Assembly (NCBI GenBank): GCA_012800855.1
Contig: JAAZIN010000098.1
Coordinates: 1 to 63,019 of the forward strand
Reading direction: 5' to 3'
DNA length: 63,019 nt
Source of the DNA: Bacillota bacterium
Lineage (GTDB): Bacteria > Bacillota > Dethiobacteria > DTU022
Shown here: one piece after another, positions 7,791 through 60,043 of the stretch
Layout: every line of letters starts with the position of its first letter
Numbering within the stretch: position 1 is the first letter of the stretch
Notes under the pieces: model-generated
Database searches by the model: none
Seen by the model: the letters and a program-made list of their open reading frames with translations, nothing else
What the model was told of the DNA's origin: nothing
Program-made: the position numbers and the translations under genes

Positions 7791-9290
<1,500 letters not shown>

Positions 9291-24886: not shown

Positions 24887-27064
24887 ATGGCGCTGGTAAA
24901 AGAGAGAAAACTGGGCGAGCTGAAAAAGCTGCTGGCGCGCCATTATCCCACGGCGGAGGACTGGGCGCTGGTGGAGAGGGCCTATGCCTTTGCCTGCCAG
25001 GCCCATGCCGGCCAGCGCCGCGAATCGGGGGAATACTTTATCACCCATCCCCTGGGTGTAGCCCTCATCCTGGCGGAGCTGGGACTCGACATGACGACCA
25101 TCATCGCCGGGCTGCTGCACGACGTGGTGGAAGATACGGCGGTAACCCTGGAGGAGATCCGCGAGAACTTCGGCGAGGAGACAGCCGCCCTCGTGGACGG
25201 CGTCACCAAGCTGAGCCGGCTTGATTTCGCCTCCCAAGAGGAGCAGCAAGCGGAGACGCTGCGGAAAATGTTCATCGCCATGGCTGAGGATATCCGCGTT
25301 GTCTTGATCAAGCTGGCCGACCGGACGCACAATATGCGCACCCTGCGCTACCTCAATGCCGAGAAGCAGAAAGAGATCGCCCGGGAGACGATGGAGATCT
25401 ACGCTCCCCTGGCGCACCGCCTGGGCATATACAAGATCAAGTGGGAGCTGGAAGACAGCGCCTTCCGCTACCTGCAGCCGGAGGCCTACTACGAGCTCGC
25501 GGAGAAGCTGGCCAAGAAGAGGCGGGAGCGGGAGCAGTTTATCAACCGCATCATCGCCATTCTCCGCGAGAGGCTGGAGGCGGTGGGGCTGAAGGCGGAG
25601 ATCAGCGGCCGCCCCAAGCACCTTTACAGCATATACCAAAAAATGAAGGAGCAGGGCAAGGAGTTCAACGAAATTTACGACCTCACTGCCATCCGCGTCA
25701 TAGTCGACACGGTCAAGGACTGCTACGGGGCCCTGGGAACGGTGCATGCCCTCTGGAAGCCCATCCCGGGGCGCTTCAAGGACTACATTGCCATGCCCAA
25801 GCCGAACATGTACCAGTCGCTGCATACGACGGTGGTGGCGGCGGAGAACGAGCTGGTGGAGGTGCAGATCCGCACCTGGGAGATGCACCGCACCGCCGAG
25901 TACGGCATCGCCGCGCACTGGCGCTACAAGGAGAAGATCACCGACGAGGGCGAGTTTGAGAAAAAGCTGGCCTGGCTGCGCCAGCTGCTGGAGTGGCAGA
26001 AGGACTACCGCGACGCCCGCGAATTCATGGAAAACCTGAAGATGGACCTCTTTACCGACGAGGTCTTTGTCTTTACGCCGCGCGGCGACGTTATCGATCT
26101 CCCCGCCGGCTCCATCCCCATCGATTTTGCCTACAAGATCCACACCGACATCGGCAACCACTGCATCGGCTCGCGGGTGAACGGGCGGCTGGTGCCCCTG
26201 GATTACGTGCTGAAAACAGGGGACATCGTGGAGATCATCACCTCCAAGCACGGCGCTCCCAGCCGGGACTGGCTGAACATGGTCAAGAGTGCCCAGGCCA
26301 AGAACAAGATCCGCAGCTGGTTCAAGCGGCAGCGGCGCGAGGAGAATATTGAAAAGGGCCGCGAGATGCTGGAGCGCGAGTACCGCCGTCTCAATGCCGA
26401 GCCGGGGCTGTTGAAAAGCGAGCTGCTCGAAGAGGTAGTCAAGAAATTCAACCTGCTCACGGTGGACGATCTCTACGCCGCGGTAGGCTACGGGGGGATT
26501 TCGCCGCAGCAGGTTATCGGCAAGCTCCGCGAGGAGTACCGCCGCCAGTGCGGCCTCAAGGAAGAGCCGCTGCCGGAGATTAAGCCGGAGCGGCGGCCTT
26601 CCGCCGCCCATCCCGGGGTGGTCATCGAGGGCGTTGACAACCTCCTGGTGCGCTTCGCCCGCTGCTGCAATCCCGTGCCCGGTGACGCCATCGCCGGCCT
26701 GGTGACGCGGGGGCGGGGGGTCTCCGTGCACCGCCGCAACTGCCCCAACCTGGCCCAGTTTAAATCAGCCAGCGGGCGGCTGCTGCAGGCCAGCTGGGAG
26801 GAGCAGGTGGATCGCTCCTACCAGGTGTCCATAGAGGTGCAGGCCCATGACCGCACCAACCTGCTGGCCGATGTCATCGCCGCACTGAGCGAAAACGGGG
26901 TCCAGATTTACGCCGTGGACGGGCGCGCCGATTCCGATCAGACGGCCGTCATCCACCTTACCATCGGGGTGCGGGATCGCTTGCAGCTGGAGCAGATCAT
27001 GAACCGGATCAAGAGAGTGAAGGACATCTACAGCGTGCGCCGCCACGTTTATGGGAAAAATTAG
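24887..27064 (+). CDS. relA: bifunctional (p)ppGpp synthetase/hydrolase RelA/SpoT
   Basis: HD hydrolase domain (HPLGVA...LHDVVEDT), synthetase domain (YQSLHTTV), then TGS and C-terminal ACT domains. Length 725 aa. Confidence 0.95.
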   Translation: MALVKERKLGELKKLLARHYPTAEDWALVERAYAFACQAHAGQRRESGEYFITHPLGVALILAELGLDMTTIIAGLLHDVVEDTAVTLEEIRENFGEETAALVDGVTKLSRLDFASQEEQQAETLRKMFIAMAEDIRVVLIKLADRTHNMRTLRYLNAEKQKEIARETMEIYAPLAHRLGIYKIKWELEDSAFRYLQPEAYYELAEKLAKKRREREQFINRIIAILRERLEAVGLKAEISGRPKHLYSIYQKMKEQGKEFNEIYDLTAIRVIVDTVKDCYGALGTVHALWKPIPGRFKDYIAMPKPNMYQSLHTTVVAAENELVEVQIRTWEMHRTAEYGIAAHWRYKEKITDEGEFEKKLAWLRQLLEWQKDYRDAREFMENLKMDLFTDEVFVFTPRGDVIDLPAGSIPIDFAYKIHTDIGNHCIGSRVNGRLVPLDYVLKTGDIVEIITSKHGAPSRDWLNMVKSAQAKNKIRSWFKRQRREENIEKGREMLEREYRRLNAEPGLLKSELLEEVVKKFNLLTVDDLYAAVGYGGISPQQVIGKLREEYRRQCGLKEEPLPEIKPERRPSAAHPGVVIEGVDNLLVRFARCCNPVPGDAIAGLVTRGRGVSVHRRNCPNLAQFKSASGRLLQASWEEQVDRSYQVSIEVQAHDRTNLLADVIAALSENGVQIYAVDGRADSDQTAVIHLTIGVRDRLQLEQIMNRIKRVKDIYSVRRHVYGKN

Positions 27065-27082
27065 ACAGGGAGGCATGTGCCC

Positions 27083-27532
27083 GTGCGAGCGGTTGTGCAG
27101 CGGGTGGAAGAGGCCCGCGTGACGGTGAAGGGGGAGGAAACGGGACGCATCGGCGCCGGACTGGTCGTTTACTTGGGCGTGGGCCGGGGCGACAGCGCCG
27201 CCGACTGCGCCTACCTTGCCGAAAAGGTTGCTGGGCTGCGTATCTTTGAGGATGAAAAGGGCCTGATGAACCTCTCCGTCAAGGATATTGGCGGGGGTGC
27301 GCTTTGCATCTCCCAGTTCACACTTTACGGCGACTGCCGCAAGGGGCGGCGCCCCAGCTTTACCGAGGCCGCCCCTCCCGAGGAGGCGGGCCTGCTCTTC
27401 GAGGAGTTTTGCGCGCAGCTGCGGCAGCGGGACGTGCCCGTGGCCACGGGCCGCTTTGGGGCGATGATGCGCATCGAGCAGGTTAACGCCGGCCCCGTGA
27501 CCATCCTCCTGGACAGCCGCAAGACATTCTAA
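27083..27532 (+). CDS. dtd: D-aminoacyl-tRNA deacylase
   Basis: RAVVQRV N-terminus, SQFTLYGD and GRRPSF motifs. GTG 27083 gives the best RBS spacing (AGGGAGG 10 nt upstream). Confidence 0.9.
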
Positions 27533-27795
27533 AAGAAGCAAGAAGCCGGAAGATAGATGCAAGATATTTATCATATCAAGGGCGTTTCTTTTTCTGCCAA
27601 GTCTTGGTTACAGGTGTAGTGGTGGGGAATGCCCCGCAAGAAAACGATCGCCTGCGGAAATTGCCATGGCCGCGTGAAATTGCCGGTATCCTGCCTGCAG
27701 GCGCCTGCAGGGATTGAAATTATTGCCAGCCCGGGACTTTTCCCGCCTGGAGATAATAGATTTACAGGAACGGATCGCACAGGGGGTGTTTGGGC

Positions 27796-27978
27796 ATGGC
27801 CGGCCCGCTGAGCCGCTGGATTAACAAGCTCCTGCTGAGGCGCCGCCAGCGCGAGGAGCAGCCTTATTTTCTGGCGGAATATTTCTCTGGCGAGATTAGC
27901 GAGGATGAAGAGCTCGCCAGCAGCGAGGGACTTACGCCCGCCGAGATGGAGCGGCTGCGGCGCGAGTTCGAGGAGTAA
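27796..27978 (+). CDS. hypothetical small acidic protein (60 aa)
   Basis: ATG 27796 is preceded by an AGGGGG RBS, and the codons are GC3-rich like the neighbouring genes. The sequence has a basic amphipathic N-terminus and an acidic C-terminus. No family was recognised. Confidence 0.4.
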   Translation: MAGPLSRWINKLLLRRRQREEQPYFLAEYFSGEISEDEELASSEGLTPAEMERLRREFEE

Positions 27979-27990
27979 AGGGAAAGCCGG

Positions 27991-28020
27991 TAGACAGAGG
28001 AGCGCTAGTTGATTTATAAT
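27991..28020 (+). promoter_or_regulatory. sigma-A type promoter upstream of hisS
   Basis: TAGACA-18 nt-TATAAT, ~35 nt upstream of the TTG start. Confidence 0.4.
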
Positions 28021-28053
28021 TGTGGATAATTTTTTCGGGAAGGAGAAAGGGAA

Positions 28054-31000
28054 TTGCAGTATCGAGCTCCCCGGGGGACGAGAGATATATTTGCGGAAGA
28101 AGTGGAGAAGTGGCAGCAGCTGGAGGAAACTTTTCGCCGGTTTTGCAAGCTTTACGGCTACAGGGAAATACGCACGCCTCTTTTTGAGCAGACGGAGCTG
28201 TTTACCCGCAGCGTGGGCGAGGAGAGCGACATCGTCTCCAAGGAGATGTACACCTTCCAGGACCGCAGCGGCCGCAGCATGACCCTGCGGCCCGAGGGCA
28301 CCGCCCCGGTGGTGCGTGCCTACCTGGAGCACAATATGAAAGAGGGGCCGCAGCCGGTAAAGCTTTACTATATCGGCCCCATGTTCCGCTACGACCGCCC
28401 GCAGGCGGGGCGCTACCGCCAGTTCCACCAGGTGGGGCTGGAGCTTTTCGGCGCCGCCGGCCCGGCCGCCGACGCGGAGATCATTACCCTCTCCCTGGGC
28501 TTCTTGAAGGCGCTGCACATCGAAGACTTTGACCTGGAGCTCAACAGCGTGGGCTGCCCGCAGTGCCGCCCCGCCTACTGCAGCAAGCTTCTCGACTACC
28601 TGCAGCCGCTGGCGGAAAATTTCTGCCCGGACTGCCGCCGCCGCATTGCCGGCAACCCGCTGCGCGTTCTCGACTGCAAGGAGGAGCGCTGCCGGGAGCT
28701 TATGCGGCAGGCGCCGCAGCTGACGGGCTGCCTCTGCAGTGCCTGCGATTCCCATTTCCGCCAGCTCCGCAAGCTGCTGGAAGGGCTGCACATTCCTTAC
28801 CTGCTCAACCCCCGCCTGGTGCGCGGCCTCGACTACTATACGCGGACCGCATTTGAGTTTGTGCCCCGCAACGCCGGCCCGCAGGGCTCCCTGGGCGGCG
28901 GGGGGCGCTACGACAACCTGGTGGAATCCTGCGGCGGCCCCTCGGTGCCCGGCGTGGGCGTGGCCTTCGGGATCGAGCGGCTCCTTGCCGCCGCGGAAAG
29001 CGCCGCCGCGGCGCCCTTTGCCCCCGCCAGGCCCCCGCTTTACATTGCCATGACCGGCGAGGAGCTGCTGGGCGATGCGCTGGGCCTGGCCGAAGAGCTG
29101 CGCCGGAACGGCGTCGCTGCGGAGGTGGAGCTCATGGGGCGCAGCCTGAAGGGGCAGATGAAGTATGCCGGGCGCAAGGGCTTCCCTGCCGTGGTTATCA
29201 TGGGCTCGCGCGAGCTGGCCGCGGGCAAGGTGACCCTGCGCCGCATGGAGAGCGGGGAGCAGGAGGAGCTGACGCGGGAGGAACTCCTGGAGAGGCTGCG
29301 GGCCGCCGAAGCCGGCCCCGGGGAAGAGGGGAGCGCTTTGCCGGACAATCCTGCCGGGGATCCCCCCGGTTGCGGCGAGCTGCGGGCTGAAGATGCCGGC
29401 AGGGAGGTAACCCTTTACGGCTGGGTGCAGCGCCGCCGCGATCACGGCGGGCTCCTTTTTGTCGACCTCCGGGATCGCACCGGCATCGTGCAGCTCGTCT
29501 TCGACAGCGAAAGCAGCGGGGAGCTTTTTGACGTGGCCGAAACGCTGCGCAGCGAGTACGTGGTCAAGGTGGGGGGCGAGGTTGTCCGCCGCGATCCCGC
29601 CAATGTGAACCCGGCGCTGAAAACAGGCGAGATCGAAGTCCGTGTCAAGTCACTGGAGATACTCAACCGCTCCAAGACGCCTCCCTTCTACATTGAAGAC
29701 GGCATTCAGGTGGATGAAAACGTGCGCCTGCGCTACCGCTACCTGGATCTACGCCGCCCGGAGAATTACCGCCGCCTGGAGATGCGCCACCGCATGGTGA
29801 AGCTCATCCGCGACTACCTCGACGGATGCGGCTTCCTCGAGATCGAGACGCCCATGCTCACGCGGAGCACCCCCGAAGGGGCGCGCGATTTCCTTGTGCC
29901 CAGCCGCACCAGCCGGGGCTCCTTCTACGCGCTCCCGCAGTCGCCGCAGCTCTTCAAGCAGCTGCTCATGGCCGCTGGGGTACAGCGCTACTTCCAGATT
30001 GCCCGCTGTTTCAGGGACGAGGACCTGCGCGCGGATCGGCAGCCGGAGTTTACCCAGATTGACATGGAGATCTCCTTCCTCGGCAGGGAGCGCCTCTTCG
30101 CCATTGTGGAGGGGATGATGGCCTGCCTCTTCAGAGAGATTCTGGGGCGCGAGCTTGCATTACCCTTCCCCAGGATGACTTACCGCGAGGCCATGGAGCG
30201 CTTCGGCTCGGACAAGCCGGACCTGCGCTTCGGCATGGAGTTGGTGGACTGCAGCGAGCCGGCTCGGGAGAGCGAATTCAAGATTTTCCGCGATGCCCTG
30301 GAAAAAGGGGGCGTGGTCAAAGCCCTGCGCGTGCCGGGTAAAGGAGGCGCCAGCCGCAAGGAGTTGGACGACCTGGTGAAGCTGGCCGTGGCCTTTGGCG
30401 CCGGGGGTCTGGCCTGGATGGCGCGGCAGGAGGAGGGCTGGCGCTCGCCCATAGCCAAGTTTTTCAGCCCCGCCCTGCTGGATCGCATCGGGGAGCTGAC
30501 GGAGGCGGCGCCCGGCGACCTGCTCCTTTTTGCCGCCGGCGAGGCCGCGGTTTGCCACGAGGTGCTGGGCAGGCTGCGGCTGCACCTGGCCCCGGAAGAG
30601 CTCTCCCCGGAGCCGCACTTCCTCTGGGTGGTGGACTTTCCCCTCTTTGAATACGACGCCGCGGAGAAGCGGTTGAACGCGGCCCACCATCCCTTCACCG
30701 CACCGCACGAGGATGACCTCCACCTTCTGGAGACGGAGCCGCTGGCGGTGCGCTCGCAGGCTTACGATCTCGTTCTCAACGGGGTGGAGCTGGGTTCCGG
30801 CAGCACGCGCATCCACCGCCGCGAGGTCCAGATGCAGGTGTTCAATCTCCTGGGCCTTTCAGAAGCGGAGGCCATGGAGAAGTTCTCCTTCCTGCTGGAA
30901 GCCTTTGACTACGGCCTGCCGCCCCATGGCGGCATTGCCCTGGGGCTTGACCGGCTGGTGGCCTTCTTCACGGGGGACGAGTCCATCCGCCAGGTCATCG

Positions 31001-31128
31001 CCTTCCCGAAGACTGCCGCCGGAAGCTGCCTTCTCACCGGTGCGCCCGCTCCCGTGGAGCCCCACCAGCTGCAAGAGCTGGGCATTGCCGTCAAATCCGC
31101 CGCAAAAGACGGCGGCCCAGCCCGCTAA
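28054..31128 (+). CDS. hisS/aspS: single 1024-codon ORF encoding histidyl-tRNA synthetase (aa ~1-420) fused in frame to aspartyl-tRNA synthetase (aa ~435-1024)
   Basis: HisRS motifs: RGTRD, MYTFQDRSGRSMTLRPEGT, FRYDRPQAGRYRQFHQ, GGGGRYD. After a Pro/Gly/Glu-rich linker come AspRS motifs: CGELR...LYGWVQRRRDHGGLLFVDLRDRTG, FRDEDLRADRQPEFTQIDME, GGIALGLDR. No stop codon separates them. TTG 29338, with GAGGGGAG 4-6 nt upstream, is a possible internal aspS start. Confidence 0.85.
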   Translation: MQYRAPRGTRDIFAEEVEKWQQLEETFRRFCKLYGYREIRTPLFEQTELFTRSVGEESDIVSKEMYTFQDRSGRSMTLRPEGTAPVVRAYLEHNMKEGPQPVKLYYIGPMFRYDRPQAGRYRQFHQVGLELFGAAGPAADAEIITLSLGFLKALHIEDFDLELNSVGCPQCRPAYCSKLLDYLQPLAENFCPDCRRRIAGNPLRVLDCKEERCRELMRQAPQLTGCLCSACDSHFRQLRKLLEGLHIPYLLNPRLVRGLDYYTRTAFEFVPRNAGPQGSLGGGGRYDNLVESCGGPSVPGVGVAFGIERLLAAAESAAAAPFAPARPPLYIAMTGEELLGDALGLAEELRRNGVAAEVELMGRSLKGQMKYAGRKGFPAVVIMGSRELAAGKVTLRRMESGEQEELTREELLERLRAAEAGPGEEGSALPDNPAGDPPGCGELRAEDAGREVTLYGWVQRRRDHGGLLFVDLRDRTGIVQLVFDSESSGELFDVAETLRSEYVVKVGGEVVRRDPANVNPALKTGEIEVRVKSLEILNRSKTPPFYIEDGIQVDENVRLRYRYLDLRRPENYRRLEMRHRMVKLIRDYLDGCGFLEIETPMLTRSTPEGARDFLVPSRTSRGSFYALPQSPQLFKQLLMAAGVQRYFQIARCFRDEDLRADRQPEFTQIDMEISFLGRERLFAIVEGMMACLFREILGRELALPFPRMTYREAMERFGSDKPDLRFGMELVDCSEPARESEFKIFRDALEKGGVVKALRVPGKGGASRKELDDLVKLAVAFGAGGLAWMARQEEGWRSPIAKFFSPALLDRIGELTEAAPGDLLLFAAGEAAVCHEVLGRLRLHLAPEELSPEPHFLWVVDFPLFEYDAAEKRLNAAHHPFTAPHEDDLHLLETEPLAVRSQAYDLVLNGVELGSGSTRIHRREVQMQVFNLLGLSEAEAMEKFSFLLEAFDYGLPPHGGIALGLDRLVAFFTGDESIRQVIAFPKTAAGSCLLTGAPAPVEPHQLQELGIAVKSAAKDGGPAR

Positions 31129-31396
31129 AGGCGTTGATGAGATCGTGCATGACCCCGGAGCCGCGGGAGATGAGCAGCCCGGTAAGGAGGTAGTCGGCAT
31201 AGGGGCAGCGGATGAAGCCGTCCCCGGCCGGCGCCAGCAGCCCCCGGTCGGTAAGGAAGCAGATGAGAACGCCCATGGCAGCGGCGAGCCAGGCCGCCGG
31301 CAGCCGCTGCAAAAAAGGGAGGCCTTTCCGGAGCGTCTCGGTGATGAATTCCACCGCCACGGCCAGGTAAAGCAGCTTGGTCAGCGCATCGCCCAC
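31091..31396 (-). CDS. small membrane protein, holin-like
   Basis: 101-aa ORF with a GTG start and an AAGGAG RBS 9 nt upstream. It has predicted hydrophobic helices (LLYLAVAVEFI, WLAAAMGVLICFL, LLTGLLI) and a basic C-terminal tail. Its 3' end overlaps the aspS 3' end by 38 nt, convergently. Confidence 0.5.
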   Translation of the reverse strand: MGDALTKLLYLAVAVEFITETLRKGLPFLQRLPAAWLAAAMGVLICFLTDRGLLAPAGDGFIRCPYADYLLTGLLISRGSGVMHDLINAFSGLGRRLLRRI

Positions 31397-31595: not shown

Positions 31596-31781
31596 GCCAA
31601 AAGCCCTGCTGTGCTCGTGTAAACCGGTTAAGTTTTGAGCTAACACACATTTAAAGGGAGCCCGGGCTTTAGCTGTAGCGTAGAAGCCTCCTTCGAGAGG
31701 ACCTACAAAGCAGCTAAGAGGGCACCCACCTTTAGGGGGAAGGGTTCAAAACCCAACGGTCCACGGCATGGCGGGGTTTTT
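31596..31781 (+). ncRNA. ssrS: probable 6S RNA (SsrS)
   Basis: ~186 nt with no ORF. The 5' end (AAAAGCCCUGCUGUGC) pairs over 16 bp, counting G-U pairs, with the 3' end (GCACGGCAUGGCGGGGUUUUU). Further helices (GUUUUGA/UCAAAAC and ACCGGUU/AACGGU) extend a long irregular rod around an internal bubble and an apical hairpin. In Bacillus subtilis the 6S-1 gene also lies next to aspS. Confidence 0.55.
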
Positions 31782-59769: not shown

Positions 59770-60043
59770 CCAACACTGCCATGAGAAAGGCAATGAACGG
59801 GCCAGTAGGCTGCAGGACGGCTCTTGCAGAGAGCCGGGGAGAGGTGCAAGCCCGGTAGAGCGCTGCAGCTGAAGATCTCCCGGGAGTCACCGTGCGAAAT
59901 CCGCGCCAGAGGCGGAGAGTAGACACGGGCGGAGCCCCCGTTAAAGGGCATGCGGAGAGGGGCCGCCGGCGGCAGTGCGGCCGGCGGCTAGCAGGGTGGT
60001 ACCGCGGGAGAAATCTCGTCCCTAACCAGGGAGGAGATTTTTT
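59770..60043 (+). promoter_or_regulatory. T-box riboswitch leader (Ile) with terminator/antiterminator
   Basis: T-box sequence AGGGTGGTACCGCG at 59993-60006. Stem I elements are an AGTA box (59804-59807), AGAGA (59828-59832) and a GGTGCAA distal loop. The candidate specifier is ATC at 59875-59877. The terminator is AAATCTCGTCCCT-aacc-AGGGAGGAGATTT plus a T-run at 60011-60043. Confidence 0.85.

Follow-up and report, generated by a model that had tools for sequence, protein, structure and literature searches.

To our knowledge, metazoan GluProRS (EPRS) is the only textbook case in which two complete aminoacyl-tRNA synthetases are stably fused, and a full-text literature search for a fusion of histidyl-tRNA synthetase (HisRS) with aspartyl-tRNA synthetase (AspRS) returned no paper on such a protein and neither of the names 'HisRS-AspRS' and 'AspRS-HisRS'. 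A review of synthetase complexes from 2015 gives GluProRS as the only two-synthetase fusion described (PMC4394549). The present analysis concerns an open reading frame (ORF) in which hisS reads in frame into aspS, located in a 63,019-nucleotide stretch of DNA from a Bacillota bacterium (assembly GCA_012800855.1, contig JAAZIN010000098.1, positions 1 to 63,019), the whole of which is referred to here as the window; the claim made in the original prediction for this stretch, that no bacterial HisRS–AspRS fusion had been described, agrees with both the literature search and the review. Like the window ORF, EPRS carries two complete synthetases and a linker on one polypeptide as a result of gene fusion (PMC4394549). 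However, EPRS is eukaryotic, combines a class I with a class II enzyme by way of structured WHEP repeats and is part of a multi-synthetase complex, whereas the proteins of the window clade are bacterial and join two class II homodimeric enzymes through a domain-free linker of 22–44 residues, which in the window protein is predicted to be disordered. Bacterial class IIb synthetases fused in frame to a partner from aminoacyl-tRNA metabolism are also represented by the families NF009460 (AspRS–GatC) and NF002821 (LysX), but their partners, unlike that in the window, are not a second synthetase; the window protein belongs to neither family, since its AspRS half matches them only in part, with scores well short of the curated cutoffs (623.6 for a cutoff of 1379 and 146.7 for one of 742, respectively). 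The unfused hisS–aspS operon of Bacillota (the Bacillus-type arrangement relA, dtd, hisS, aspS, 6S RNA) has the same gene order and neighbours as the window and encodes housekeeping HisRS and AspRS enzymes orthologous to its two halves, from which the window differs in lacking a stop codon between the genes, a start of its own for aspS and a T-box leader. What is new is a synthetase–synthetase fusion that is bacterial, joins two class II enzymes, is conserved in a clade and is possibly recurrent, although the proteins themselves are already public under AspRS names.

The window contains one plus-strand ORF of 1024 codons plus a stop codon, with a TTG start (Table 1), in which HisRS and a bacterial-type AspRS are both complete and share a single frame, and the ORF listing is thus in agreement with the initial description of a hisS gene without a stop codon. 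The HisRS half (residues 5–407) matches NCBIfam TIGR00442 (hisS) over its full length, from profile position 2 to position 405 of 406, with 528.8 bits against a cutoff of 286.75, the N-terminus MQYRAPRGTRD aligning with position 2 of the profile. A C-terminal anticodon-binding domain distinguishes HisRS from its paralogue HisZ; because this domain (PF03129) is present the HisRS half is a true HisRS, and the hisZ profile remains below its cutoff (193.8 against 271.65). The AspRS half (residues 440–1015) matches NF001750 (aspS) with 822.6 bits (cutoff 443) and TIGR00459 with 751.5 bits (cutoff 373.85). The former match spans profile positions 9–588 of 590 and begins at Cys440 of the CGELR motif, encoded at position 29371. 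A free-standing AspRS with its own N-terminal initiation codon is not what was found at this junction: the match begins only at profile position 9, neither ATG nor GTG is present in frame between 29281 and 29420, as had been noted earlier for the usual AspRS start, and the only classical in-frame start codon in that interval, a TTG at 29338–29340, is not conserved. The two halves are connected by a linker of 22 residues rich in Pro, Gly, Ala and Glu, close to the Pro/Gly/Glu-rich segment of 20–25 residues first proposed.

When the whole ORF was searched against 5.8 billion clustered proteins, about 100 clusters of 982–1051 residues were found to carry both HisRS and AspRS Pfam domains, and 86 clusters with the same architecture are 60–84% identical to the window protein. 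Residues across both catalytic cores, including the catalytic motifs, are invariant in the alignment of these 86 clusters, and the mean column identity of 74% together with this invariance shows purifying selection on both halves; the invariant residues of the HisRS core also suggest that tRNA-His is histidylated by the fused enzyme. Two subclades can be distinguished: that of the window itself (P0001–P0015, 74–84% identical) and a large subclade (P0019–P0086), which includes soda-lake sediment contigs and two metagenome-assembled genomes (MAGs), L001 (uncultured Syntrophomonadaceae bacterium) and L002 (Firmicutes bacterium UBA993). The HisRS–AspRS architecture is rare overall, since in a library clustered at 50% identity the fused family is a single representative and the other 149 of the best 150 matches align to the AspRS half alone. 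Taken together, the comparisons support a genuine fusion that spans about ninety related lineages, and the fusion ORF of the original prediction is thereby extended from one contig to a clade.

The gene is also reproducible within its own species. The exact 1024-residue protein is encoded on six contigs, four of which were compared at the DNA level: the gene is identical to that of the window in the JGI samples 3300025609, 3300000494 and 3300027510, carries a single-nucleotide difference, outside the junction, in Logan SRR17841910, and has the same junction sequence in all four independent metagenome assemblies. A sample blind to the fusion came from the JGI metagenomes, in which a DNA pattern encoding a motif internal to AspRS (WVG[RK]RRDHGGLIFIDL) was matched at 69 loci. 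Large-subclade loci were selected among them by their AspRS N-terminus and by the presence of sufficient upstream sequence, and all of these (about 20) are open into HisRS or to the end of the contig, with no stop codon. The 19 distinct linkers of these large-subclade loci (545 codons) contain no in-frame stop, whereas the two alternative frames contain 23 and 43 stops.

The linkers of the clade are hypervariable, occur in 17 lengths from 22 to 44 residues and are in frame every time. In the linker of the large subclade the motif (A/P)EVxLP is conserved nine residues ahead of K(T/S)HYCG, and its codons vary: Leu is encoded by CTG (9), TTG (4), ATG (2), TTT (2), TTA (1) and CTT (1), Glu by GAA (8) and GAG (6), and Val by all four of its codons. 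Similarly, the last linker residues before CGEL in the subclade of the window, (E/D)PPG, are conserved with varying codons (CCC/CCG, GGT/GGC). The conservation of the motif residues while their codons drift synonymously indicates that the linker is translated and that selection acts on the peptide. The possibility that (A/P)EVxLP represents a translated Shine–Dalgarno sequence (GAGGT) followed by a TTG start that is still in use was considered and rejected, since the Leu codon is mostly CTG and also TTA, CTT or TTT, GAA is as common as GAG for Glu, and L002 lacks a Shine–Dalgarno-like sequence. The motif is possibly a relic of an ancestral start, although the spacing in the large subclade is mismatched, with the Leu 13 residues before the Cys against 5–8 residues in unfused relatives. 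No Pfam domain is found in residues 417–451 and the linker is predicted to be disordered in the AlphaFold2 model of the window protein (predicted local distance difference test, pLDDT, <50 for residues 420–436). In the model of a large-subclade protein the motif block reaches a pLDDT of 59, against 42 in the remaining linker, and forms a β-bridge to the AspRS N-terminus, which hints that the motif may dock there. The tryptic junction peptide of the window protein, AAEAGPGEEGSALPDNPAGDPPGCGELR, begins upstream of codon 429.

The explanation that we favour, with a probability of about 75%, is a genuine in-frame fusion that has been fixed in evolution and gives rise to one polypeptide with a calculated size of ~113 kDa comprising complete HisRS and AspRS. 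Translation would start at TTG 28054, preceded by the Shine–Dalgarno sequence AAGGAG, and would proceed through the disordered 22-residue linker into AspRS. The fusion is likely to have originated when hisS lost its stop codon within a compact hisS–aspS operon, after which a separate ribosome-binding site and start for aspS would no longer be needed and would decay. Since reversion would require a new stop codon, a new Shine–Dalgarno sequence and a new start, the fusion would then be locked in. A neutral ratchet of this type, with loss of the stop and subsequent decay of the internal start, would be the simplest evolutionary account, and a selective benefit of linkage is possible. The fusion is most likely to be the housekeeping source of both activities in the cell. 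No second copy of hisS or aspS occurs within the 63-kb window, and there is presumably none elsewhere in the genome; the polypeptide presumably remains uncleaved and performs both aminoacylations. HisRS and AspRS are class II homodimers, and the fusion protein is therefore likely to assemble through both dimer interfaces, presumably as a closed α2 particle or as open chains. How two homodimer interfaces coexist on one chain is a structural question raised by this family, which offers a natural and simple system for studying how and why synthetases become physically linked, with a visible evolutionary route that leads from an abutting in-frame stop and start through stop loss to decay of the internal start; its interest for specialists in tRNA synthetases is moderate to high. 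On the other hand, several points weigh against this explanation. A stand-alone aspS or hisS elsewhere in the genome is possible, the linker may be cleaved, and TTG 29338 may serve for some initiation in this species. Confidence in the AlphaFold2 monomer models is modest (predicted template-modelling scores of 0.44 and 0.53), and they are mute on quaternary structure. Lastly, unfused lineages (L086/P0098 and L158/P0105-6) are placed, with weak support, at the base of the fused group or just inside it, so that the history may comprise either one fusion followed by fission or two fusions.

The hisS and aspS genes had been described as adjacent but separate in most Firmicutes, and among the GTDB species representatives 78 of the 80 hisS–aspS loci among the matches listed do have a stop codon between the genes; only L001 and L002 are fused, and the species of the window is not among the matches listed. 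In close unfused relatives the hisS stop abuts an in-frame aspS start (TAA TTG in L003, TAG ATG in L079), and a single substitution in the stop codon would therefore be sufficient to give a fusion. The number of such events was approached through neighbour-joining trees of HisRS, of AspRS and of the two concatenated, which included 88 fused sequences. All 88 always group with the unfused L086 in the bootstraps, but L086 falls outside the fused set in just 19–33% of replicates, and 10% of replicates recover the fused set as monophyletic once further unfused AspRS sequences are included. In this enlarged AspRS tree the unfused P0098 and P0105/6 fall, with weak support, between the two fused subclades. 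A recent fission in L158, the locus of P0106, is disfavoured, since its spacer is an ordinary AT-rich one of 113 nucleotides. This spacer makes two separate fusion events somewhat more likely than a single fusion with later fissions, although a single origin may still apply. Fused ORFs are in addition found singly in lineages that are otherwise unfused (P0089, P0090, P0093, P0094/P0137, P0099–P0101 and P0109), of which P0137, a cluster-mate of P0094, bears the label Acidobacteriota; the single-contig cases among them could be errors. P0093 retains an intact MNKRTHYCGE AspRS start within its fused ORF, which suggests either a very recent stop loss or an error.

A more far-reaching proposal, which we regard as tentative and rather doubtful, is that this anaerobic Bacillota lineage depends on covalent HisRS–AspRS, that the fusion arose more than once and that linkage itself is useful, the (A/P)EVxLP and (E/D)PPG motifs docking and the protein forming a minimal bacterial multi-synthetase complex. 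If linkage were useful in this manner, the benefit could lie in a fixed 1:1 stoichiometry or in coupled handling of the two tRNAs with GUN anticodons.

Dual expression, in which the full ORF is translated and free AspRS is also made from TTG 29338, so that the fusion would be a minor or incidental product in this species, is an unlikely alternative, and one in which the database records have a part. Records of the gene from the same species (P0123, P0124 and P0128) disagree, giving 1024 residues (JGI and others), 627 residues from Met398 (NCBI) or 596 residues from TTG 29338, the last being the point at which the NCBI annotation of a sister record begins AspRS. The fused proteins are named plainly 'aspartate--tRNA ligase' in databases, or their entries are split, and with the gene named only as AspRS, automated surveys would score genomes as lacking HisRS or would mis-size AspRS. 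The hisS gene itself has a TTG start, and the AspRS of the unfused L086, which follows a 10-nucleotide spacer and begins MPAFKRIGCGEL, starts with Met-Pro at a similar distance from CGEL; the Leu-Pro of the window linker may be a relic of such an ancestral AspRS start. The earlier suggestion of an AspRS start at TTG 29338 holds in that the codon and a Shine–Dalgarno-like purine run four nucleotides upstream are both present, but the codon is not conserved. In P0002, the closest relative, a TTG lies two codons away from the position in the window without a Shine–Dalgarno-like sequence upstream, while P0006, P0009 and P0011, three of the five relatives read as DNA, have no ATG, GTG, TTG, CTG or ATH among the 27 codons that lead up to the conserved Cys, and the potential start residues Met, Val, Leu and Ile occupy no conserved linker position in the subclade of the window. 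Nor is TTG 29338 statistically remarkable, because 15 of the 68 in-frame ATG, GTG and TTG codons of the fusion ORF have a Shine–Dalgarno-like tetramer upstream. The residues upstream of any such start are, moreover, conserved at the protein level, and a consensus scan found no promoter-like site near the junction. An internal terminator at the junction was also considered and rejected: one terminator-like hairpin (29433–29450) lies inside the coding sequence, and two such sites were found against 4.3 expected by chance. Initiation at TTG 29338 finds no support as the normal route and is disfavoured, although it may occur in this one species, and from the comparison of sequences we conclude that a single polypeptide is probably the normal product.

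Cleavage of the fusion polypeptide in an exposed Pro/Gly-rich linker, after which separate HisRS and AspRS dimers would carry out the work, appears very improbable. The predicted disorder of the linker would permit it and its hypervariability fits an accessible tether, but no cleavage motif is conserved over the clade and the conserved linker motifs adjoin the AspRS core instead of lying in the middle of the linker. Finally, a sequencing or assembly error that deleted the hisS stop codon or created a frameshift, an alternative raised at the outset, is refuted by the junction common to the four independent assemblies and by the architecture kept in 86 diverged clusters from many projects, even though errors do arise near the junction, as shown by one ENA assembly of the same species (P0128) with a local double frameshift just 5′ of the linker, where it reads ...EELTRRNSGELRAAE...

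Table 1. Features of the HisRS–AspRS fusion gene and its surroundings in the window
Feature	Position	Strand	Basis
Promoter-like site: TAGACA, 18-nt spacer, TATAAT; 11/12 matches	27991..28020	+	Consensus scan only
Shine–Dalgarno AAGGAG, 8 nt 5′ of the TTG start of the fusion ORF	28040..28045	+	Sequence reading
Fusion ORF, HisRS–linker–AspRS	28054..31128	+	ORF listing, profile and Pfam matches; found in 4 other assemblies
HisRS class II catalytic domain, residues 8–310	28075..28983	+	PF13393, E=1.8e-50
HisRS anticodon-binding domain (HGTP_anticodon), residues 331–416	29044..29301	+	PF03129, E=1e-17
Linker AEAGPGEEGSALPDNPAGDPPG, residues 418–439	29305..29370	+	Alignments, codons, AlphaFold2
Candidate internal start: GAGGGGAG (29326-29333), 4 nt later in-frame TTG (29338-29340, codon 429)	29326..29340	+	Sequence reading; not conserved
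AspRS N-terminal OB-fold anticodon-binding domain, residues 452–537	29407..29664	+	PF01336, E=8.6e-19
AspRS class II catalytic domain, residues 554–987	29713..31014	+	PF00152, E=2.6e-122
Bacterial GAD insertion in the AspRS core, residues 745–837	30286-30564	+	PF02938, E=1.4e-22
Sole stop codon of the fusion ORF	31126..31128	+	ORF listing
6S RNA	31600-31781	+	RF00013, 105 bits

The fusion gene of the window is preceded by relA (24887-27064) and dtd (27077-27532) and followed by the gene for 6S RNA, and all close relatives share this neighbourhood of relA, dtd, hisS, aspS and 6S RNA, followed by mraZ and rsmH in most loci. Of the 16 related loci scanned, 13 have 6S RNA near aspS, whether or not the two synthetase genes are fused. 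A T-box-regulated two-cistron hisS–aspS operon was rejected as a description of the locus, which has no T-box leader and a single ORF with no intervening stop: the stretch 5′ of the fusion gene (27400–28200, E<=1) gave no Rfam match of any kind, and no T-box leader was found at hisS–aspS in the 16 related loci at the gathering score. A T-box leader (RF00230) does occur elsewhere in the window, at 59784-60026 on the plus strand, with 95.1 bits against a gathering score of 93.

Two small ORFs without Pfam matches flank the fusion gene. The first, of 60 residues (27796-27978, plus strand; MAGPLSRWINK...EYFSGEISEDEELA...TPAEMERLRREFEE), sits in the interval between dtd and the fusion gene and is conserved there in L159, in L161 and in L162, which is more distant. 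The second, a hydrophobic ORF of 101 residues on the minus strand (31091-31396), overlaps the final 38 nucleotides of the fusion gene; the overlap is kept in L085, L159, L160 and L161 and amounts to 50 nucleotides in the unfused L158, and the ORF is absent from L086. In L003, a close unfused relative from a Syntrophomonadaceae MAG, a PYLIS_3 element (the pyrrolysine insertion sequence of mttB) was detected at 8471-8570 on the minus strand with 60.2 bits, which suggests the use of pyrrolysine in that lineage.

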